Below are positions 24,150 to 43,267 of a DNA stretch of 64,000 bases, in pieces (the stretch's first letter is position 1; every line of letters starts with the position of its first letter). Location of the stretch: the sequence record OP595145.1. The stretch is one strand, 5' to 3'. The notes beneath the pieces were generated by a model, which was not told the DNA's origin, did no database searches, and saw only the letters and a program-made list of their open reading frames with translations. Origin of the DNA: Escherichia phage vB_EcoM_DE16. Both the position numbers and the translations under genes were made by a program.

Positions 24150-24779
24150 ATGGCAGTGAGTGTTGACCATGTAACAACTTGGGCCAGTATCAATGAAGAT
24201 GTTAAAAACCTTCTGATTGAAGATTTTAAATCTTCTCCTAACATTGTCAAGCTCCTCTACATCGTATCCAGTGAAAAGCAAAAGATAGATCAGGCAATGA
24301 TCTATCTTGCTAAACACCGCTTGATCTCTACAGCTACAGGCAAATACCTAGATATTCTAGGGGAAGAAATGGGGATCGAACGTAATGGCTCTGATGATGA
24401 AGAGTATAGAACAATATTAAAAATCAGGGCTTACCGCGTAGCCTCATCGGGGACTCGTGGTGACATAATTGATATCTTCGCCCGTTTCACAGGAACAGAG
24501 CGTGAAACGCTTAATACTTACGTAGGTTTGAATAAAACCTTTGATGTGTTTTTCTACAACCTGTGTCTTCAATCTGATCAAGCTTTAGAGCAGTTGCTAA
24601 GTGTTTTCCCTATTATTAGTAGCTACCGTCTTGGAGCAAAAGCAGGATCAGCTTTTGGTTTTAGTTCTTATTATGCTACCAAACCGCCTCATGGTATTGG
24701 TGGTTTAGGTTCCCTGTACATGGAATCTACTGGGGATGAAACAGGACGCATGTGTACGCTTCTCAAGCAAATAGATTAA
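24150..24779 (+). CDS. baseplate/tail protein (P2 gpI-like position)
   Basis: 209 aa between J-like and tail fiber genes. Confidence 0.35.
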   Translation: MAVSVDHVTTWASINEDVKNLLIEDFKSSPNIVKLLYIVSSEKQKIDQAMIYLAKHRLISTATGKYLDILGEEMGIERNGSDDEEYRTILKIRAYRVASSGTRGDIIDIFARFTGTERETLNTYVGLNKTFDVFFYNLCLQSDQALEQLLSVFPIISSYRLGAKAGSAFGFSSYYATKPPHGIGGLGSLYMESTGDETGRMCTLLKQID

Positions 24780-24788
24780 GGAGTTTAA

Positions 24789-25850
24789 ATGGCGAAGCCA
24801 ATATATTATCCTGACTGGGCTACACAAACTGTAACGCTCCCAGGAACTTTAAACACAAACAAAATTAGACCTAAAGAAACCATCCGCACAGTTGGTATGG
24901 ATTATGGTCAAATCATGACTTGCGAAGAAATGAACTGGATTCTTAATAATATCGGTTTATGGATTCGCTATTTGGTGGATGATTTTCTTCCAACTTTACC
25001 TAATACCTACTTGCCTTTAGTGGGAACTAAGATTACAATGGCAGGTGATGCTACTGGTGAGGCCACTTGGAACGGTAACAAAGAAGTTACTTTATCTATC
25101 CAAGTTCAAGATAACAGTCATAATCACTTGTCAGCAAACATTACAGATGCTACTAGTTCAACAGTAACACCAAACGTGTTGGTAAAACGTGATGCGGGTG
25201 GTGCTATTTATGGTGGTGATGTTTATGTTAACGGTACTTCCACAACAGATCCTGCAACACTGTTCTTCAAAAACTTTGCAGGACAAACAAATGGTGAGAT
25301 TTCTGCCGAGTATCAAAGCGGAGGTCAGCTTTACATCTATCGTAGAAATCCTAACACAGGTAGTGTATTGGCAGGTGTTCGTTTATATGATGCAGGTTAT
25401 GTTCTAATAGATAATCCAAGATCGAACAGTGGACAAGATACTTCTAACGGAAATGCTTTAGTTCGTTTAGATTATCTGAACTCTCGTTTGACTTCCCTTC
25501 AGAACACATTGCAGACGAATATTAACACTGTTCAAAACAACTTGAATAATGTTAACAACAACCTCTCTTCTCGTATAAACAATGTAGAAAGTAATCATCA
25601 AAGTCAGATTACAAATAACTACAACTATGCTAACGGAACCTTTGTAAGAGATATTCGTTATACTAGCCAAGGTGTGTATTATCCGCCAGGGAACGAGGTT
25701 TCTTGGACTTATATCTGTTCTTCTGGTTATGTTCTTTCTGGTATTATCGTACAGGAAACAGGACGTAGCTCTGCGGATAACATCGGTGGGGTTTACTTCA
25801 AACGCCTCCAGCGCAACGTTAACGGAAACTGGTACGATATTGGAGGCTAA
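24789..25850 (+). CDS. tail fiber protein
   Basis: 353 aa; N/Q/S/T-rich repeat region (NTLQTNINTVQNNLNNVNNNLSSRINNVESN) typical of fiber shafts; followed by an assembly chaperone-like gene. Confidence 0.55.
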   Translation: MAKPIYYPDWATQTVTLPGTLNTNKIRPKETIRTVGMDYGQIMTCEEMNWILNNIGLWIRYLVDDFLPTLPNTYLPLVGTKITMAGDATGEATWNGNKEVTLSIQVQDNSHNHLSANITDATSSTVTPNVLVKRDAGGAIYGGDVYVNGTSTTDPATLFFKNFAGQTNGEISAEYQSGGQLYIYRRNPNTGSVLAGVRLYDAGYVLIDNPRSNSGQDTSNGNALVRLDYLNSRLTSLQNTLQTNINTVQNNLNNVNNNLSSRINNVESNHQSQITNNYNYANGTFVRDIRYTSQGVYYPPGNEVSWTYICSSGYVLSGIIVQETGRSSADNIGGVYFKRLQRNVNGNWYDIGG

Positions 25851-26396
25851 ATGATATTTACAAACTTTAAAAAATATATTCCTGAAGACCCTGAACTAAA
25901 AGAATTGGTAGAAGCAGAGAACATTCTTTTTCTTCGTTGCGATCAAGGTTACGACTGGTATGATTTACGTAGCACAGAATTCAATAACGATAAAATGAAA
26001 GTCGTTTTTGATGATCAAAATCGTATTGTGTTTTGGAATACTGATCCTACACTACTTTGCCCTGAAGATCTTTCTATAGCACAAGTAGACTTTAATATAG
26101 ATACTTTTGAGGATATTAGGAACAAGGTTCTGGATTTAGAAACCTTAACTCTTAAGGATAAAGAGTATTCCCGTGAAGAGTTGATGACACAAGCTAGTGC
26201 AAAAATTCGCTCTTTACAAGAAACAGCGGTAGCACTTATAACACCTTTACAGTATGCTAAAGATTTAGAAATGGCTACTGAAGACGAATTAGCTTATCTT
26301 AAAAATCTTCAAGTTTATGTAGTTAAACTAAATCGTGTTCCGCTTCAAAAAGACTATCCTTACGCTATAGATTGGCCTACATTACCGACAGAATAA
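25851..26396 (+). CDS. tail fiber assembly chaperone (Tfa / gpG-like)
   Basis: 181 aa immediately downstream of the fiber gene with ATGA overlap. Confidence 0.45.
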   Translation: MIFTNFKKYIPEDPELKELVEAENILFLRCDQGYDWYDLRSTEFNNDKMKVVFDDQNRIVFWNTDPTLLCPEDLSIAQVDFNIDTFEDIRNKVLDLETLTLKDKEYSREELMTQASAKIRSLQETAVALITPLQYAKDLEMATEDELAYLKNLQVYVVKLNRVPLQKDYPYAIDWPTLPTE

Positions 26397-26405
26397 GGGA
26401 TCACT

Positions 26406-26741
26406 ATGGAATTTCAAGAAGCATGGGGACTTGCAAAGGATGCAATAATCCCTTTAATCGGAGTCATCTGGTTCTTTTTCAAACAAAAAATGGATAAATT
26501 CGGCTCTGATCTTGAGGAAATGGAGGAGAAAAGTCGAGAGCTAGAGAAGAAGTTGGTCTTTGTTGAATCAACTTATGCAACTAAAGCCGAACTTACCCAG
26601 ATGCTAAATCAAATTAACTCTACATTAATGGCAAATAATAACACCCTTGAGCAAAAAATTGAAAAGATTATGGACCTCAAGAATGCGACTATCCAAATGA
26701 TGCTAGATGACATAGTTAAACGTACACAGAATAAGGGGTAA
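26406..26741 (+). CDS. small protein with N-terminal TM helix and coiled coil
   Basis: 111 aa; hydrophobic AIIPLIGVIWFFF then heptad-like helical region. Confidence 0.35.
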   Translation: MEFQEAWGLAKDAIIPLIGVIWFFFKQKMDKFGSDLEEMEEKSRELEKKLVFVESTYATKAELTQMLNQINSTLMANNNTLEQKIEKIMDLKNATIQMMLDDIVKRTQNKG

Positions 26742-26744
26742 TTA

Positions 26745-29700
26745 ATGGCAACATTCCCAACATATCCAGCAACGTCTCTCGAACAGGGCGTAGACCTGGT
26801 TATTTTCTCATCTAACCAACTCCATGATGTTATTAATGGAAGTGCTACAGAGAGTATTGAAACAGAATCAGGGTTGATACCAACCCTGAGAAAAGCCCTT
26901 GTTGACAACTTTTTCTTTAAAAGCCCATTGGATTGGGCGCAAGGCACAAACGAAACAGTTTTTAACCAACTTCGTTATTTCCAGAATGGAGTATTGAGCG
27001 GTTATTACTATGCCCCTAACGCTACATTGGTTAACCCAATCCCTATGCAAGGGACTCCAGTAGGAGATAACAACTGGGTATTGTGGGGACTGAAAACAGA
27101 ACAATTAGCAACAGAAGTCACCCCGTGGGTATACTCTGGTGCAACGGGTTATGAAACAGTAATTAGTCCTCCTTACATCTTTGATAGTGCTATTGTTACG
27201 ATCAATGGTGTTATTCAGGTTCTGGGGGAAGCTTTCCGTATAGAAGATAGTAAGATCATCTTATCTGAACCTTTGGGACACGATCCTGCAACAGGACTAC
27301 CAAACAAGCTTTTTGCTTATATTGGTAAAATCGTAGCTTCAGCAGATACAGATCCTAATCTAGAGAACCGTCTTGTTAGTTTAGAAACAAAAACGGAAGA
27401 ACTAACAGAAAGCATGGATAAAGTCCCTCTGCAAACTATTGCTCGTAAATATGGTTTGTTAGATGATGAGGTGGCTTACGCAACAGCAGGTCAATCGTTA
27501 ACAGGGATTAAAGCTCTGTATGATCCAGTAGCACAGTCTTCCTACACATTACCTCCTAACATCACAGGAACTTTAACATCCTTGTCTGTTTCTGGAGTAA
27601 TGACTTATTCTGGGGGGTCTGTAGATCTTTCTGCACTAGCTGTTGAACGTGGACAGTTTGTTCATTTGCCTACAAGCTTTGGTAATAACGTAACTCTGAC
27701 AGCTAAAAATCAGACGATTGGACGTGGTGCTGGTCGTTATCGTTGGGCTGGAAGTTTACCAAAAAGTATTTTGGCTTCTGATACATTGGAGACAAGCGGT
27801 GGATTAGGTCCAAATGCATGGGTTCTGACCAATACAGAAGGACTGTTAACCCCTCGTGGTGGAACATACAACGATTTATTCGATGTTGTCTACTTGTCAG
27901 AATTTGCTAACAACACAACAACATATACCACACCAGAAGCAGCTTTCCAAGCGGCACTGTTAGCAGCAAAAGCTTCGAAAAGCAAGATTCTCGATGCTTA
28001 CGGTTGCGATATGACTTTCACGACAAGCTCTTTTGATATTCAAGGTATCACTTTGCGTGGGGGTGTGTTCCGTGGTCAACGCGACTATCGTGTGCAAAAT
28101 GCTACAGTAGAAGGCACAACTTTCCGTAACTCTCGTGTTATGTATTGGGGTGGTGCTGTGCGCATGTTCGATTGTTTGTGGGACGGTGCTCCTCGCGCAG
28201 GTCAAGTTGGTAGCTTGGTATTCCAAGGCAACCCAATATCAGGTACTTTTGAAATTGATAATTGTACTTTTAAAAACGGGTTATACGGCATCCTTCAACA
28301 AGGAACAGGGGAACCAGTAACACGTGGTGTCTTCCGTAACCTTACCTTCATGGACATGCAAGGTGATGCAATAGAACTGAACGTCATCAATAAACATTAT
28401 GACGATGGTTGTGTGATTGAGAATATTTACCTGTCTAATATCGATGGAACTAATGCTCCTATTCCTCTGTCCAACTGGGGTATCGGTATTGGTGTAGCTG
28501 GTAAAGGACCATATGGTTACGGAATCCCTGATGATCAATATTGTAAGAATATTACAATTCGTAACGTTTTTGCAAAACGTTGCCGTCAGATTGTCCACGT
28601 AGAAGTTGGTCGTAATATCTCTATCGAAAACATTCATGGCGATCCAGACCAGACTGTATCTGTTGGGACAGGTTTGGCAACTGGCGCAGTTGTAATGTAT
28701 GGAAGTAAAGATTTTACGATTGATGGTGTTTATGGAGAGCCTAAAACAGACGGTAGCACACTTGCAAGTAATATCCGTATGATTTATTTGGAGTGGGGAA
28801 CTAACGCAGTTCTGGACGAAGAGGGTAATCCGGTAGTTCCGGCACAGGGCAGACCTTCAAATCCATGCTTTAACTATTCTGTTCGTAACATTCACACCAA
28901 AACTGGGCGTGTTTTTGCGGGAGTTTCCGCTGGGCCAGGTTATGAAAACAGAGTTAGCTTTGAAAATATTCGTTGCGCTGCATTGCAGTTGTTCGGTATA
29001 GCTTCTTGGCTTTCAATGTCTAACATCACCTGTAATATCTTCGATTGTGTTGGTCAACCTGAATCTGGTCCAGGGACATTTTATGATGGATTCTTCCGTA
29101 GAGAAAAATCTGTTCTTGAAATGGTTAACGTAAACTGTTACCCAGATGGCAAGACGATGGTTACTGGTCGTCCACAGTGGAGCCGTTGCCGTTACTCGGA
29201 TATTCATCGTGTCAACTGTAATGTTGAAGCTAATATGTATACCAATATCGCAGGTGGTATTGGAGCTATTGTAGGGACAACGGGCAAAGTTTATTACTTA
29301 GAGCCTAATCCTAGTCGAAACATTGATGGAATGCATTTCCCAACAGGGAAAGAGTTTGACAAAGGGGATATGATAGTCAAGGCGGATAATACGTTCTTCC
29401 TTGTAACAACAAGTGGGGCATATATTCCAGATATCCCAGCTTTCGGTATTCGAGCTACACAGGCAGGAGATACCTTCCTGACACAGAACTTGACTCCTAA
29501 CGGGACAGCAACAAATGCTTCTTGGTTGTATCATTACCCTCTGTCAGCAGGGACACGTATCCGTATTCCTGGTGCTGGTGTAGGTGGAGCAGATTTGGAC
29601 ACAGTTATTACTCGTGCACCTTATCAAGATAATGATACGTGGACTAACCCAGTTAAAATAGACATTGCAGATCCAATTGTAACGCCTACAAGTGCTGGAG

Positions 29701-34599: not shown

Positions 34600-34628
34600 A
34601 AAAGGAGCCATTTGGCTCCTTTCTTTTA
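34600..34628. terminator. bidirectional terminator at convergence of plus and minus transcription units
   Basis: GGAGCC-ATTT-GGCTCC hairpin flanked by A-run on one side and T-run on the other, between the stops of the 31926 (+) and 34663 (-) genes. Confidence 0.6.
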
Positions 34629-34662
34629 TTCAGCATTCAACCTCACACACTTGAAACAAACC

Positions 34663-35595
34663 TTAGAAGCAATGCAGGAAGTTTCGACCATATTGCAGTC
34701 CAATAGGAGCAAATGGAATATCATCGTCGAAGTCCATTGGAGGTTCTTCTTGATTACTTGGAGTTGGTTCTGGTTGTGGTTCAGGCTTCTTAACTTCTTT
34801 CTTCTCTTCTTTCTTAGGTTGTTCTGCGGAACCACGAATGGCAGCAGCAACTTTATCAGACAGAGCCAGAACTTTACGAGCAGAGTCAATCAGATCTTCT
34901 ACAGATACAGTCTTAATGGTATGGTCTTTACAAGCATTGAGAATAGCGTGACCAACAGATGCCCCAAGATCATAATCATTAATATCAACGCCACGAGATT
35001 CAGCAATTTCCGATTTCAGCGTGACAGTTGCAGATTGAACAACCCCAGCGATATCGAAAGCATCACCTTTAACACCATTACGAATCAGTTCCAGTGCACC
35101 ATTTACTGCGTGACCAGTTTCCAGACCTACAGTATCACGTTTTTTATAGGACTGCTTAGGAGCAGCATCGTTGGAACCTTTATTGCCAGAAGATTTGTTA
35201 GACTTCTGAACACCATCGGTAGACAATACTGTAATACGAGATTTTTTAGTATTGTAGTAAGTTTTACCGCCTTTATTATCAACGCGATCAATATCAATAC
35301 TTACTTCTACACCTTTTTCAATAGTGATCCAATTATCACCTTCTTTGACTTGCAGGTTTTCATAACCTTCTTTCAGTTCAATGTCACCAAGAGAAATCCA
35401 AACACCTTTCTCATCTGGTTTAGCACCTTTCTCTTTCAGAACAAGAGAAGCTCGGTGAGTTGAAACAATCGTTTTTCCTTCCCAATGAAAAGTTTTAGGT
35501 TCAGCGAATTTATCCAGTTTAACGTAGTCTACGATACCAGTTGCATAAGTTACGGTTTTGCCTTTACGATCAGTTTCAGTATTAATTACGGACAT
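34663..35595 (-). CDS. single-stranded DNA-binding protein-like, carrying an E. coli SSB-type acidic tip motif
   Basis: 310 aa; RBS GAGGAG; acidic/proline-rich tail with PPMDFDDDIPF followed by 15 more residues; N-terminal beta-rich region. Confidence 0.45.
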   Translation of the reverse strand: MSVINTETDRKGKTVTYATGIVDYVKLDKFAEPKTFHWEGKTIVSTHRASLVLKEKGAKPDEKGVWISLGDIELKEGYENLQVKEGDNWITIEKGVEVSIDIDRVDNKGGKTYYNTKKSRITVLSTDGVQKSNKSSGNKGSNDAAPKQSYKKRDTVGLETGHAVNGALELIRNGVKGDAFDIAGVVQSATVTLKSEIAESRGVDINDYDLGASVGHAILNACKDHTIKTVSVEDLIDSARKVLALSDKVAAAIRGSAEQPKKEEKKEVKKPEPQPEPTPSNQEEPPMDFDDDIPFAPIGLQYGRNFLHCF

Positions 35596-35611
35596 TATTA
35601 TCTCCTCTACA

Positions 35612-36004
35612 TTACATTAATTTTGCACAGAAAGAACGGAGTCTTTCCATATCATCTTGCTCTAACAGGTATTTACCTTTACCTATTCCAACTCCAATTT
35701 CACCATTAGGAAAATGAACTATTTGCACTGGGAAACCTCCGAGTTTAATTGTGGCAGCTTTGCCTTCTTCGTCTATAACGTTTCGGATTGTATCTTGCAG
35801 TGAAATGAATTCTTTGTTTGTAACGGTGGTTTCAATTATTTCAGATGTTTCAACACGAGCAGTTAGCTTCTTGTTTCCACCTTGAATAACCAAAATTTGA
35901 AAATAAAAAGAGTTGTCAAGACCTACAACATTTTTCTCAACTAGTGTCAAACTGGTATAGTTTCCATAAACAGTTTCAACAGCTATCTTAGAACGTTCAG
36001 TCAT
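35612..36004 (-). CDS. hypothetical protein
   Basis: 130 aa ORF in the minus-strand operon. Confidence 0.4.
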   Translation of the reverse strand: MTERSKIAVETVYGNYTSLTLVEKNVVGLDNSFYFQILVIQGGNKKLTARVETSEIIETTVTNKEFISLQDTIRNVIDEEGKAATIKLGGFPVQIVHFPNGEIGVGIGKGKYLLEQDDMERLRSFCAKLM

Positions 36005-36049
36005 TGAATGCTATCCTATCATAAAATGTTTAATATTGTCAAGCTTTAA

Positions 36050-36643
36050 TTACCAAGGAATATCATCTTCTTCCAATCTGGTATCTACTTGAGGTGGACG
36101 TGGAACCTTAACCTCTTTCACAAAACGAAGATATGGGAAACGTGTAGCAATTTTAATAACATGTTTGGCATCTTCTCTAACATCTTTGTGCAAGAAGCAG
36201 ATCCCTGTTTCCAAGGTTGTTTCAAAATCTTCAGAATAATAACAATCCTTCCCATCAAATGCAGCCTGGCAGATGGACAGATCGAACTCATTTAGAAAGG
36301 TTGTCATTACGCTTGTTTCCATAATCATAAGGTTGCAAAGCTGACCATCACGTTCAAACTCAAAAACGTGTTTAAGACCAGTAACACCTTCATAATTGTC
36401 AGAAGCCTCTTTGTTTCCTAGTTTACGAATATTGGTTCCCATTAAAGCAGATGCAATTAATCCTTGTATTTGTTCTTCAGTCCGATGTGCAGGAAGGGAT
36501 GTATAGAAATCCAGATCACGTCCAGCAATATCAAGAATACGCCAATCACGAACAGCACCGCCAGCCAAGACAGAATTAGGATCAGCGATCTTTAATACGG
36601 TAAGAATCTCTTTGGCAATATTGATTTGTTTTGATTTAGTCAT
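36050..36643 (-). CDS. minimal Pol-beta-superfamily nucleotidyltransferase (CCA-adding / poly(A) polymerase head-like)
   Basis: 197 aa; GGAVRD followed by DLD (LAGGAVRDWRILDIAGRDLDFYT); C-terminus ends EEDDIPW. Confidence 0.5.
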   Translation of the reverse strand: MTKSKQINIAKEILTVLKIADPNSVLAGGAVRDWRILDIAGRDLDFYTSLPAHRTEEQIQGLIASALMGTNIRKLGNKEASDNYEGVTGLKHVFEFERDGQLCNLMIMETSVMTTFLNEFDLSICQAAFDGKDCYYSEDFETTLETGICFLHKDVREDAKHVIKIATRFPYLRFVKEVKVPRPPQVDTRLEEDDIPW

Positions 36644-36864: not shown

Positions 36865-37032
36865 TTATACTTCTAAACGGAAAGTTTCTTTAGATACAAA
36901 ATCGTATCCACCTTTTTCAAGCCAGTCATTGTAAACCTCATCAGCTTGAGACTCTATCATAAAATACCGAGTGGTAACTTCGTCTCCGACAATACGCACA
37001 ATTTTATAGCAAATCATGATACCATTTCCCAT
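36865..37032 (-). CDS. hypothetical small protein (55 aa, below ORF-track cutoff)
   Basis: ATG overlaps the upstream stop (TAATG) and is preceded by GGAGGAAG; found by manual translation. Confidence 0.3.
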   Translation of the reverse strand: MGNGIMICYKIVRIVGDEVTTRYFMIESQADEVYNDWLEKGGYDFVSKETFRLEV

Positions 37033-37223
37033 TAATCTTCCTCCAGATCAATTTCATTATAACAATGTATACAGAAACCATCATTGTGCATATGTTGTTC
37101 ATAAGACATATCTTTACCACAAGACCAACAACGGATATCCCCATCGTCCCATTCACGTTCTTCTTCGCCTTCAAATTCATCTGGTAGGTAAGGCATACCA
37201 AAATAATCTAAATCGTAACTCAT
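37032..37223 (-). CDS. small zinc-ribbon protein
   Basis: Start re-assigned to internal ATG (MSYDL) preceded by AGGAGA; paired CxxC motifs (CWSCG ... CIHCY). Confidence 0.45.
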   Translation of the reverse strand: MSYDLDYFGMPYLPDEFEGEEEREWDDGDIRCWSCGKDMSYEQHMHNDGFCIHCYNEIDLEED

Positions 37224-37272
37224 ATCTTCTCCTATAAAGGGGCAGAAGCCCCTTATAAAACAATACGTTAGA

Positions 37273-39870
37273 TCAATGACAGGATGCCCAGGAATTACCC
37301 ACATCATATCCGGCAGTAAGCTGAACATTAAGATTGTAAAATTCTCCAGCCTTAGTAACAGCTAAGGCAGCAAGTTCACCTGCCCGACTATAGGCTGTAA
37401 ACCATCCACCTTTGGGAGATTCATGAATGTTAGCCCAAATTTGCCCTGTCTCTTTTTCCTTATTATGCTTCCATTCTTCGACTTTAGCAAGGCATTCTTT
37501 ATCAATTTTCTTTTGTTCTTCAGGATCGTCTACTTTCTTCCAACCTAATGATTCAGGTGAAAACCATTTGAATTCTACAAGGTTACGAGAAACTTCAAGC
37601 TGGGCTTCATCGTGGTATGCAATCATTTGTTGCACGAAGTCTTTATTCTTCCAATCATCTTTAAAGAAGTCAACACTTAGTCCTTCTTCTTCGATCATGT
37701 CGTCATAAATAACCATTGCACGTTTAGCACAGATAACCCCACCACTTTGGAACAGAGAGTTAAGAATCGCGTGAGCAGAACGAGTAGGAACCTTACGACC
37801 GTCAATACCCAAAACATATTGTTTACCAGTCTTAACCCAGAAATCGTTTAAACGTTCTTTAAGACGCGCCAATGGGAATGCAGCTTCCCAGAAAGCATCG
37901 AACACCAATTGACCTGTAAACTTATCGCTACCAATTGTTTTAGCAACCTTGTCGGCTTGTGCACCATAGGTAATACCATACTTAACAGATTTAGCAGGAC
38001 TACGTTCAAATTTACGTCCAATAGTTTCAGTGATACGTTTTGCCATCATTGTGTGAACATCATTAGGTTTCTCTAACAACAGGGCGTTACAATACTCGTG
38101 TGGCTCCGGCTCGTACCGCCAACAGTAGTGTGATTCAATTTTTGCTTCCAAAGAGTCGAAGTCGTAGCCGATCTGGAAGTATTTAGGAACCTCCACACCA
38201 AACAAGTTACGCATCTCCCATCCAAACAAAGATGTGACACGAGGAATATTAGCTACAGACCTATGCTTCATACGCGAGGTTGCAGCATCACATGTAGCGG
38301 CTGGGGTAGGAATACGCCCATCCGCCCTTACTGCGGCTAAGAAACCTTTATCGTATTCTTGATCTTCTTCATCTTCTTCCCAATCAGCACCGCCACCTAA
38401 AATAGAGTTCCTACGATGTTTATACGTTAAGTATTCTACAATCTGTGTAGCATAAGGGAATTTCTCACCCAAAGCTTGCAGGTTAGGACAGATTTCTTTT
38501 TCCTGACCTTTGGTAAAGCATGGGTTAGTCAATACTTTAAGACCGCGACCTTTACCTTTTGCTATACGCTCTTGAATCTTCCTTTCCAAAGTTTCCGGTG
38601 TGCACTCCAGATGATCACAACGATCCTGACAAAAATTAGAAGATAGAGTTTGCTCAACGTAAGCTCGAATACCTTTCTGAAGTTCTTCCTCGCTCTTTTT
38701 AATCTTGGTGCCAGATTTAAGAGTCAAGTCTTTATCTTTATATTCAGACGGTACCCAACCTAATCCTACAAGCCAGTTTTTAATATGGGTAGTATCGTTC
38801 AATGTTGCAGGGATGTTAGGATCACACAAAGGCTCATCTGCTGCAACTGGCAGTTTCCACTCTTTCCCCAACATCACTAACCACCAATCTCCATCCCTCT
38901 CTTCCAAATGACCATCATGTTTCTTAGCAAAATTGATCATATGGTTAGTTGGCTCTAAGTTCTTTTTAATTTGCAACTTAGGTGGAATAAAAGCCTTAAG
39001 ATAACCTTTTGTTGCTGGTTTAGGTGGCAAAATAGGCTCAACGAGTAAACGAAGACGCTCCATTTCTGCATCCAAAAAAGCAAGGTTCTCTTCTGCTTGC
39101 TTCATGTTAAAAGCAAACCCACGGTGTTCCTGGCGTGTAATAATGTCTGCTACACGTTGTTCAAGTTCAAATGGACCTTCCCATTTATCATAATCACCCC
39201 ATTCTTCCATAAGGTAATTATATACGCTCGTATTGGCTTTGTTGTCATAGATACAGTAATAAAGCATATCAGCAGCAAAAGTCTTAAATCGATCTTCTTC
39301 TGGAATCTCTTTACGGAAATCTATTTTTACATCACCCCCTGCCTTTCGAGAAAGTGCTGCCAAACTATGTCCTGATTTGCCTTCAATCTTTCGATCTGGG
39401 TTTAACACTTTACTCAAAATCAAGGAGTCAATAAGTTTTACCTTATTTTTGCCCCACGTATTATATTTAACACTGTAATCTAAGCCATAAAACAGTTTTG
39501 TAGCCAACCAGTCATAGTTGATACCGTTGTGAGCCACAGCCATTTCAACCAGATATTCAGGCTTATCTTTAAAATAACCTTCATGATTAATAAAGTCTGG
39601 GAAATCTTTTAGTTGAAAATGTGTGTAATCTTGCGCCACATACTCTTTAAGAACATATGTGTATTTACCATCTGACTCTTCATAAGGACGCCCATCAAAG
39701 ATGTATTTAGGGCCATCGTGGAAAGCTACTATTTCTCCTGTTTCATGGTTCTCTAAGACAATACAGTGCATTTGAAATGTGTCTTTGAGACGATAAGGAC
39801 TAGCTAAATAATCGATAGTGTCATTATTCAACAATCCGTTTGCTTCAATATCCCATGTAAACTTACTCAC
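37273..39870 (-). CDS. DNA polymerase, family A, with 3'-5' exonuclease domain
   Basis: 865 aa; exonuclease motif DIEANGL; motif B-like KSVKYGITYGAQ; motif C YHDE; GTG start after AAGGAGG. Confidence 0.85.
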   Translation of the reverse strand: MSKFTWDIEANGLLNNDTIDYLASPYRLKDTFQMHCIVLENHETGEIVAFHDGPKYIFDGRPYEESDGKYTYVLKEYVAQDYTHFQLKDFPDFINHEGYFKDKPEYLVEMAVAHNGINYDWLATKLFYGLDYSVKYNTWGKNKVKLIDSLILSKVLNPDRKIEGKSGHSLAALSRKAGGDVKIDFRKEIPEEDRFKTFAADMLYYCIYDNKANTSVYNYLMEEWGDYDKWEGPFELEQRVADIITRQEHRGFAFNMKQAEENLAFLDAEMERLRLLVEPILPPKPATKGYLKAFIPPKLQIKKNLEPTNHMINFAKKHDGHLEERDGDWWLVMLGKEWKLPVAADEPLCDPNIPATLNDTTHIKNWLVGLGWVPSEYKDKDLTLKSGTKIKKSEEELQKGIRAYVEQTLSSNFCQDRCDHLECTPETLERKIQERIAKGKGRGLKVLTNPCFTKGQEKEICPNLQALGEKFPYATQIVEYLTYKHRRNSILGGGADWEEDEEDQEYDKGFLAAVRADGRIPTPAATCDAATSRMKHRSVANIPRVTSLFGWEMRNLFGVEVPKYFQIGYDFDSLEAKIESHYCWRYEPEPHEYCNALLLEKPNDVHTMMAKRITETIGRKFERSPAKSVKYGITYGAQADKVAKTIGSDKFTGQLVFDAFWEAAFPLARLKERLNDFWVKTGKQYVLGIDGRKVPTRSAHAILNSLFQSGGVICAKRAMVIYDDMIEEEGLSVDFFKDDWKNKDFVQQMIAYHDEAQLEVSRNLVEFKWFSPESLGWKKVDDPEEQKKIDKECLAKVEEWKHNKEKETGQIWANIHESPKGGWFTAYSRAGELAALAVTKAGEFYNLNVQLTAGYDVGNSWASCH

Positions 39871-42988: not shown

Positions 42989-43267
42989 TTAAAATGGTTC
43001 GTTAGTCTCCATCATATATTCTGCTTCTAGTTCTTCCATGTGCTTTCTAAATTGGAAAGCAATTTCTGCTACAGTTACATTTAAATCTTTTTCAAAAACT
43101 TCTGTAGAGCCTTCGTAAAAACGAATACCGTCAATTAAAAGCCCTCCGTGGTAATCCCAATCACTTTCACGAGAAAGCGGGTTAGGCTCTTCATAATAGT
43201 AATCCACCTCCACGACTAAGGCTTTCCCGTTACGAGTGGTGTATTCAAAATCAAAAGTGTTAATCAT
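42989..43267 (-). CDS. hypothetical protein
   Basis: 92 aa ORF. Confidence 0.4.
   Translation of the reverse strand: MINTFDFEYTTRNGKALVVEVDYYYEEPNPLSRESDWDYHGGLLIDGIRFYEGSTEVFEKDLNVTVAEIAFQFRKHMEELEAEYMMETNEPF

Follow-up and report, generated by a model that had tools for sequence, protein, structure and literature searches.

A conserved peptide beyond the C-terminal tip motif of a phage SSB-like protein and of SSBs from other mobile elements

[quoted passage not shown] Here we describe an SSB-like protein of 310 amino acids, encoded in a 64,000-nucleotide stretch of Escherichia phage vB_EcoM_DE16 (OP595145.1; hereafter the window), in which an intact copy of the host tip is followed by 15 more residues. 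Judged from sequence comparison, such post-tip extensions are a widely distributed class that phages, prophages and IncN plasmids carry on SSB families unrelated to one another. Searches of the literature on SSB tips, on phage and plasmid SSBs and on C-terminal extensions found no description of the extension, and it appears to have gone undescribed before. The best explanation as a whole, to which we give an even chance, is that the extension has a function of its own, added to the tail of an SSB bearing the host-identical tip so as to retune it.

Results

A host-identical tip that is not the C-terminus

The gene for the SSB-like protein lies at 34663-35595 on the minus strand, which carries all features of the window described below unless stated otherwise. 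From the list of open reading frames (ORFs), a profile match and BLASTP, its product was assigned to the PHROG 4477 family as a homologue of Bas52_0087 of phage RudolfGeigy. The match to phrog_4477 has E=3.4e-97, and the homology to this PHROG 4477 / Bas52_0087-type family extends over the full length of the protein. The ORF ends in ...EEPPMDFDDDIPFAPIGLQYGRNFLHCF, that is, in ...EEPPMDFDDDIPF followed by APIGLQYGRNFLHCF. A previous sequence-only reading had recognised the E. coli SSB tip in the segment PPMDFDDDIPF, and this holds: the motif covers residues 285-295 (34711-34743, coordinates checked) and, over EPPMDFDDDIPF, the protein is identical at 12/12 positions to enterobacterial SSB C-termini (...APSNEPPMDFDDDIPF). 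The 15 residues that the same reading had placed after the tip are indeed present at 34666-34710, ahead of a TAA stop codon (34663-34665, coordinates checked). The tip Phe, F295, is therefore not C-terminal in this protein and, as had been pointed out, it lacks the free alpha-carboxylate that is anchored by the pockets binding the SSB C-terminal tip (SSB-Ct) (PMC10164576). Among the 246 window ORFs of at least 50 amino acids, two contain a D-I-P-[FW] motif: the SSB-like protein and a nucleotidyltransferase (NTase) of the same operon.

An AlphaFold2 (AF2) model built on a 46-sequence alignment, with a predicted local distance difference test (pLDDT) score of 79.6, agrees with the N-terminal OB-fold suggested earlier. 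The predicted all-beta OB-fold domain comprises residues 1-125 (35221-35595) and is joined by a disordered linker to a four-helix domain of residues 156-253 (34837-35130; helices 156-172, 179-201, 208-223 and 232-253, pLDDT >90). Residues 254-310 form a disordered tail, of which residues 254-295, ending in ...EEPPMDFDDDIPF, have pLDDT <50; by its score and its sequence, the stretch ahead of the tip is a disordered K/E/P-rich linker (residues 254-284, 34744-34836). On sequence and model, then, the ORF encodes the SSB-like protein of the phage, in which an OB fold is followed by a helical domain and the tail is disordered.

A Pfam scan of the 310-residue protein gave no match, PF00436 (SSB) included; a control protein with the extension, P0247, scored 1e-40. 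The PHROG families annotated as SSB match the tail only, namely 7364 and 18154 (up to residue 295) and phrog_44 (residues 265-306), and 4 of the 5 matching PHROG profiles (4477, 18154, 7364 and 2544) stop exactly at residue 295. Just upstream of the helical domain, D154 (codon 35134-35136) forms an invariant column in the 46-sequence alignment and is aligned with Bas52_0087 D252, the site of the D252V change that allows escape from the defence system DRT10. Bas52_0087 Y351 maps to the last helix, near A250 of the window protein.

Conservation of the extension in relatives

A search returned 237 homologues of the 310-residue protein, which itself heads a cluster of 110 member sequences. An extension is present in 28/120 family members (ext+), and the remainder stop exactly at the tip Phe, in [IV]PF (ext-). 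The two states are interleaved in the family, even within close pairs. The exact allele of the window recurs in 536P1, ECO340P2, DIJ07P2 and vB_Ec-G1, four independent phage records, and the SSB-like protein of phi92, which is 63% identical overall, has the same 15 residues, encoded by 45 nt that differ by 5 silent and 0 replacement changes. The extension also occurs in PsgM04F and Citrobacter Tr1 and, in related form, in SSE121 (APIGLQYGRNFIHCI) and rV5_ev168 (APVGLQYGKSRIHAL). As the allele is found in four other genomes and the extension is conserved in divergent relatives, a sequencing error or one-off read-through is excluded, and with it the alternative entertained by the sequence-only reading, that resequencing would place a stop directly after DIPF as in an ordinary tail.

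Most close relatives align to residues 1-295 only. In anhysbys, for example, TGA follows directly after F, and near-identical Phapecoctavirus genomes are polymorphic for the extension, the majority ending exactly in ...DIPF. Ext- alleles from lineages only ~49% identical have a common motif, TGATTTATAAAG, in the 3' untranslated region (3'UTR). The possibility that the 3'UTR of anhysbys is a degraded remnant of the extension was rejected, since this motif is common to those distant ext- alleles. The tip is as well conserved in ext+ as in ext- proteins and, being intact in the former, is still under selection there. This polymorphism, and the endonuclease remnant described below that overlaps the extension, had escaped the earlier reading, although its basic observation is real.

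To judge from substitution patterns, the post-tip extensions are under purifying selection as peptides. For the group of window-type extensions, the ratio of replacement to silent polymorphism (pN/pS) was 0.08 when read in the SSB frame and 0.86 when read in the +1 frame; two groups of canonical SSBs had 0.18-0.21 and 1.3, respectively. These values are biased downward because many loci were retrieved by a pattern fixing the first seven residues and the groups were set by peptide regular expressions. Comparisons among the window, phi92 and SSE121 are free of this retrieval bias. Some changes leave the SSB peptide as it is but alter the endonuclease frame (I to T in Tr1 and IA to TV in phi92). 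In the tail alignment, the most conserved stretch of the extension is its proximal part, APIGLQY.

The same class of extension on other SSBs

We defined class I extensions as [AS]P[IV][GT]L[QP][YF] directly after ...[IV]PF, followed by 7-10 residues that end in hydrophobic-x-small-hydrophobic-COOH, and retrieved them with a profile of tails and a degenerate DNA pattern. The consensus of the class is [AS]P[IV][GT]L[QP][YF]-x3-4-hydrophobic-x-[CAVS]-hydrophobic-COOH, and the window extension, APIGLQYGRNFLHCF, fits the definition. In viral contigs of 40-55 kb, class I extensions also occur on canonical PF00436 SSBs and on at least four other N-terminal families. The genes downstream of these ext+ SSBs are diverse and mostly non-overlapping, and most start 55-117 nt past the PF codon.

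Named carriers of a post-tip extension include Proteus phage vB_BPM-V3 and, in erf-ssb-abc2 modules, the P22-like phage g341c and prophage CP-1639, whose SSBs have the extension APVTLPFPRHAIHAI; that of an IncN conjugative plasmid SSB is APVTLPFPNHAIHAL. The last three are PF00436-type SSBs with DDIPF followed by APVTLPFP[RN]HAIHA[IL], encoded at 1839-2372 of the IncN plasmid locus (OW968067.1, L119), 2084-2590 of the g341c locus (L120) and 2072-2584 of the CP-1639 locus (L121). Alignments that cover at least 80% of a query made of tip and extension were obtained for 203 phage records and 65 plasmid records, and a representative library yielded 58 clusters at 50% identity. The exact DNA pattern occurs in 14 of about 185,000 species genomes, nearly all of them from Gammaproteobacteria, a rarity consistent with sporadic carriage by mobile elements rather than with a housekeeping ssb. 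All extension termini are non-polar (…HCF, …YVI, …NCM, …YAL). The interpretation offered by the sequence-only reading, possible mimicry of or competition for host SSB partners, keeps its factual footing in the internal Phe and the conserved DDIPW of the NTase; the extension itself is not peculiar to one protein.

A second type of post-tip peptide, class II, has the form AP[LMHAV]HHL[AN]G[AGT] (9 amino acids; e.g. APLHHLAGA) and is found on GC-rich phage SSBs (L122-L235; e.g. L123, L148 and L176). In nearly all cases the next gene begins only 1-5 nt past the stop, and a Shine-Dalgarno-like GGNG lies within the last codons; because of this tight coupling to a downstream start, class II was kept apart from class I. 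Other short post-tip tails are APEWR, AP[AV]WLI and APCM.

A homing endonuclease at the 3' end of the SSB gene

In several relatives an HNH homing endonuclease gene begins inside the extension. PsgM04F, Citrobacter Tr1, Mt1B1_P17 and rV5_ev168 have a 29-nt overlap of this gene with the SSB gene; bases 2-3 of the Tyr codon and base 1 of the Gly codon of the extension supply the ATG of the endonuclease. The intact product has 164 amino acids, with a Cys4 finger and HHCDY...LCPLHHEAWH, and matches phrog_2340 'endonuclease' with E=5e-46. Alignment of the window with Mt1B1_P17 and PsgM04F identifies a remnant of 21 codons at 34626-34691, MVETSCIASKVCFKCVRLNAE and a stop, which is made up of the first 15 codons (MVETSCIASKVCFKC), two junction codons (VR) and the last four codons (LNAE) with the stop. 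Relative to Mt1B1_P17, which is about 98-99% identical here, the window is missing 429 nt of the endonuclease interior. The remnant is without an intact HNH catalytic motif and Cys4 zinc finger and is not a gene.

An intact endonuclease gene is present in Mt1B1_P17, PsgM04F, ZCKP1 and nieznany; the window and four other genomes have the deletion, and most relatives have no such gene. The endonuclease occurs without the extension at locus L025 and in phiWec188 and AV125, and the same endonuclease family is found behind unrelated SSB genes (L092, VLCpiS13b and vB_Shi_2KOFFS). Several junction types thus meet at the 3' end of the SSB gene, which makes it a recurrent insertion site, or hot spot, for homing endonuclease genes. 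Such enzymes favour highly conserved coding sequence, which a hot spot here fits.

Two candidate relationships were rejected. In phi92 and SSE121 the +1-frame reading 'MVETS...' is an automatic consequence of the YGRNF codons and does not mark an endonuclease remnant; compared with these two, only the window has a true remnant past the SSB stop. Nor is the extension always paired with the endonuclease, since most canonical ext+ SSBs are followed by unrelated, non-overlapping genes.

Two side observations concern other endonucleases of this site. In L015 (IMGVR_UViG_3300031372_000028) a different endonuclease-like ORF of 168 amino acids, beginning MYKDLSKELVLRMKGFLSYNESTGVF..., comes right after the SSB-like gene; it starts 2 nt past the PF codon, its ATG overlapping the TGA stop, and represents a third insertion type. 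The endonucleases of rV5_ev168 (L003, 2744-3367) and PsgM04F (L005, 4489-4983) share an N-terminal Cys4 / EFYKH...DGH.NKCK.C domain and differ in their C-terminal halves, one of which is phrog_1035 'endonuclease VII' and the other phrog_2340 (rV5-type and phAPEC8-type, respectively). This suggests domain shuffling around a common DNA-binding module.

A nucleotidyltransferase with a tip-like C-terminus

The putative Pol-beta-superfamily NTase (197 amino acids, 36050-36643; phrog_10174 'nucleotidyltransferase', E=1.7e-62) is encoded two genes upstream of the SSB-like gene, with one 130-residue ORF between them. It ends in ...RLEEDDIPW, so that, as the sequence-only reading had it, EEDDIPW (36053-36073; coordinates checked, with homologue alignment) presents a free aromatic C-terminus. 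The GGAVRD...DLD signature is invariant in the alignment. Against the Pfam PolyA_pol head the protein scored 14-22 bits (cut-off 23), and a PDB profile search with it gave no match. The AF2 model is of low confidence (pLDDT 55.9); its top Foldseek matches are all Pol-beta-fold transferases, with E>=0.01.

The motif [DE]D[DS][IF]PW-COOH occurs in 10/10 database homologues, down to 58% identity, and also in PsgM04F, phiWec188 and Tr1; the phi92 homologue has no DIPW motif. D193, P196 and W197 are invariant, and the preceding 15-20 residues vary freely. Since DDIPW is kept behind a variable linker, we regard it as a genuine tip-like motif, and the pattern is what marks a functional short linear motif at a C-terminus, here one that resembles SSB-Ct. 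Most likely, DDIPW-COOH is a second, free tip-like motif that would dock the enzyme into a tip-binding pocket, either of a host partner or of the phage T7-like polymerase.

Gene order and neighbouring genes

The region is phAPEC8-like (Phapecoctavirus, Stephanstirmvirinae), with 97-99% identity to such phages over 3 kb. The SSB-like gene is the final gene of a leftward replication operon that comprises, from upstream to downstream, a Pol A DNA polymerase gene (continuous in the window, 37273-39870), three to four small ORFs, the NTase gene, the 130-residue ORF and the SSB-like gene. A bidirectional intrinsic terminator (34600-34623; 10-bp stem GGAGCC/GGCTCC with T-runs on both strands) parts the SSB-like gene from a convergent tail-protein gene, and the GC-skew changes sign at about 34 kb. 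The 130-residue ORF (35612-36004; phrog_16560, no assigned function) has syntenic equivalents ahead of the SSB-like gene in phi92, PsgM04F, Citrobacter Tr1 and phiWec188; rV5 and SSE121 have an ORF at this position that was matched by size and place. As an upstream neighbour, the phrog_16560 family accompanies 5 ext+ and 6 ext- alleles.

Erf-like, Sak4-like, RecE/YqaJ-like exonuclease, RdgC-like and phrog_16560 genes are found upstream of both ext+ and ext- SSBs. The largest upstream cluster was present at 46/132 ext+ and 16/106 ext- loci, although the control set is taxonomically mismatched. This cluster was formed by single linkage; its representative matches an Erf-like annealase, and at least one member resembles a P-loop ATPase.

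Some further ORFs deserve mention. Beside ext+ canonical SSBs (L062 and related loci), a 384-residue fusion of RdgC-like and FtsK-gamma parts ends in ...ERTVIPF-COOH, possibly another tip-like tail on an SSB neighbour. In the window, a 92-residue ORF (42989-43267), the counterpart of Mt1B1_P17 gp106 and located just upstream of a 592-residue hypothetical protein in the replication region, ends in ...EYMMETNEPF, where P-F-COOH comes after an acidic stretch; this could be yet another, third, tip-like tail of the same module. A Cys-rich ORF of 98 residues (CWSCG...CIHC; 37032-37328) shares 56 nt with the 3' end of the polymerase gene, but its true start is probably an internal Met, as the phrog_25582 match covers residues 36-98 only. 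The low-complexity ORF of 283 residues on the plus strand (34612-35463), antisense to the SSB-like gene, was treated as spurious. In the rV5-like phage RudolfGeigy/Bas52 (L251) the DNA polymerase coding sequence, 24750-27803, is annotated as two joined pieces, i.e. with an intervening sequence.

Discussion

What the extension may do

Pockets for SSB-Ct bury the terminal Phe and anchor its alpha-carboxyl group, which is one of the most important contacts, and deletion of the terminal Phe abolishes binding (PMC10164576). With an internal Phe that has no alpha-carboxyl group, carboxylate-dependent binding is expected to be weaker. The extension most likely retunes or masks tip-dependent partner binding: it would leave no alpha-carboxylate for the pockets of host SSB partners while providing a new non-polar C-terminus, and the partners of an ext+ SSB would be fewer than those of an ext- SSB, or different ones. 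Recruitment of ExoI-type partners could be weaker, for example, or the trigger strength for SSB-sensing defences such as DRT10 could be changed. We infer that the tip and extension act as a composite motif with altered partner specificity, and prefer this option to a removable cap or a stability tag. Recombination or homing at the DNA that encodes the tip, which is very conserved, probably shuffles the ext+ and ext- states. Given that no neighbour is specific to ext+ loci and that ext+ and ext- phages can be near-isogenic, any partner would probably be either a protein of the host or one that all these phages have, and the extension probably acts in a modulatory rather than an essential way.

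Several points weigh against a functional add-on. The neighbour-gene enrichment yielded no gene family exclusive to ext+ loci. In the AF2 model the extension is disordered, and the tail docks on none of the other domains of the protein. Phages of both states are viable although they share about 98% identity elsewhere, and the extension is therefore dispensable. As ext- alleles have their own conserved 3'UTR, the change may have been a gain or a loss of the extension, and the pN/pS values carry the downward bias noted above. Simple permanent masking is hard to reconcile with a tip that has stayed conserved in ext+ proteins, and any role of the extension in binding or processing is putative, as is its partner.

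Other explanations were weighed against the same evidence. That the extra residues are an artefact or arose recently by accident, whether through faulty sequencing or assembly or through a single stop loss adding 15 meaningless residues, has virtually no probability: it would suit the close relatives that mostly end exactly at DIPF and the four PHROG profiles that stop at residue 295, but the same allele stands in four independent genomes, the phi92 peptide is identical with silent differences only, and related peptides recur in SSE121, in rV5 and on many canonical SSBs among some 90 viral-contig loci. The extension might instead be a by-product of the endonuclease, retained at the DNA level for its start codon, for expression or for target-site destruction, with no role as a peptide. 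The ATG supplied by the Y-G codons and the 29-nt gene overlap in PsgM04F, Tr1, Mt1B1_P17 and rV5 would be so explained, as would the remnant in the window, a patchy ext+/ext- distribution like that of a mobile element and the presence of the same endonuclease family behind other SSB genes. We nevertheless find this quite improbable, because substitutions that leave the SSB peptide unchanged do change residues of the endonuclease frame, because the extension is intact in the endonuclease-free phi92 and SSE121 and on canonical SSBs whose unrelated downstream genes lie 55-117 nt past the PF codon, and because the endonuclease-positive alleles of L025, phiWec188 and AV125 lack it.

The protein could also be a pro-protein, in which a host or phage protease cleaves the cap at F295|A296 and unmasks the canonical tip at a certain time or place. 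This would agree with a tip that is equally conserved in ext+ and ext- proteins, with the nearly invariant junction PF|[AS]P, and with ext- alleles that always end at F, so that a free IPF end is a functional alternative; however, no candidate protease or cleavage precedent was found and conservation spans all 15 residues, beyond the junction, and we think it unlikely. A stability tag, the non-polar C-terminus serving as a degron that keeps the SSB with the host tip low or transient, is a very doubtful alternative. All variants end non-polar and some resemble the ssrA tail (…YALYA, …IYAL), and from the work of Parsell and Sauer and of Flynn et al. such C-termini are said to destabilise proteins in E. 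coli; but the most conserved part is the proximal APIGLQY and not the terminus, and no variant ends in the canonical LAA. Finally, the tip of the SSB and the DDIPW of the NTase could be wired within the phage, docking on its T7-like polymerase or helicase and not on host proteins, much as the acidic tails of T7 gp2.5 and gp4, which end in Phe, dock onto gp5. The operon includes a Pol A-type DNA polymerase gene four genes upstream, the phi92 polymerase is annotated as T7-like, and two proteins of the module share an acidic-aromatic C-terminus. Identity to the host tip at 12/12 positions exceeds the need of a phage-internal contact, however; the same tip and extension are found on SSBs of temperate phages and IncN plasmids with no polymerase gene within about 2.5 kb on each side, and the genetic link of the homologue is to host ExoI, all of which makes such wiring improbable.

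A wider version of our preferred reading, the functional add-on, is held more tentatively and is less likely than not. It states that mobile-element SSBs of Gammaproteobacteria, from lytic and temperate phages and IncN plasmids alike, combine a host-identical SSB-Ct with a conserved 'cap' that switches the interactome, that the two states are exchanged by homing or recombination at tip DNA, and that the NTase is a second client of the same pockets or a competitor for them. The cap could then block recruitment of ExoI, RecJ or RecQ, redirect the tail, or evade DRT10-like defences. Suitable peptides for a comparison of tip, extension and NTase end are WMDFDDDIPF, DFDDDIPFAPIGLQYGRNFLHCF, APIGLQYGRNFLHCF alone and LEEDDIPW.

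The existence of a large, selected set of phage and plasmid SSBs that keep a perfect tip under a conserved peptide challenges the 'free terminal Phe' rule, and capped tips suggest that mobile elements can tune, mask or redirect the interaction hub of host SSB in a manner not noticed before. Phage SSBs, including a homologue of the window protein, are now known triggers of several anti-phage defence systems, and natural near-isogenic pairs of ext+ and ext- phages make the role of the cap directly testable. The locus also flags tip-coding DNA as a hot spot for homing endonucleases and adds an NTase with a tip-like tail of its own.

Comparison with known systems

In common with E. coli SSB, the window protein has an OB-fold domain, a disordered linker and the identical 12-residue tip EPPMDFDDDIPF; unlike it, it has no PF00436 match, carries an extra four-helix domain and places the tip internally, before 15 conserved residues. 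A homologue with a known role is Bas52_0087 of RudolfGeigy (Vequintavirus), described as 'SSB-like' with an FDDDIPF C-terminal tip, which is required to trigger DRT10 (bioRxiv 10.64898/2026.04.29.721553). DRT10 is controlled by host ExoI/SbcB, with which the tip of Bas52_0087 has been proposed to interface, and also restricts Stephanstirmvirinae (bioRxiv 10.64898/2026.04.29.721553). The two proteins are 33-34% identical over the OB and helical domains (BLASTP, two high-scoring segment pairs, E=1e-15 and 8e-13). Both genes occupy the same place downstream of a DNA polymerase gene, with an ORF of ~120-130 amino acids before them, and both encode the FDDDIPF tip. Unlike the window protein, however, Bas52_0087 has 408 amino acids with an extra inserted domain and is ext-, ending in ...DDDIPF; extensions go unmentioned in the preprint that describes it (bioRxiv 10.64898/2026.04.29.721553).

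The use of such tails by several proteins of one replication module recalls T7 gp2.5 and gp4, where acidic tails likewise carry a terminal aromatic residue (here ...DDDIPF and, on the NTase, ...DDIPW). The T7 tails differ in that they are strictly terminal and are not known to copy the host tip or to involve an NTase. A tail with a partner of its own is also known from phage HK620, whose SSB requires its last residues (NDYPPF) to recruit the phage recombinase Sak4 (PMC5928155). Many ext+ canonical SSBs similarly adjoin Erf- or Sak4-like annealases, but the HK620 tail is terminal and not host-identical, and no extension is described for it (PMC5928155). The endonuclease, for its part, resembles the free-standing HNH homing endonucleases of phages ('intronless homing', reviewed in PMC2988022) in being small, in having a Cys4 finger and in its insertion between conserved genes. 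Like them, it is patchily distributed among near-identical genomes and decays by deletion; unlike them, it starts inside the 3' end of the SSB gene, and its predicted site is the coding sequence of the SSB tip itself.

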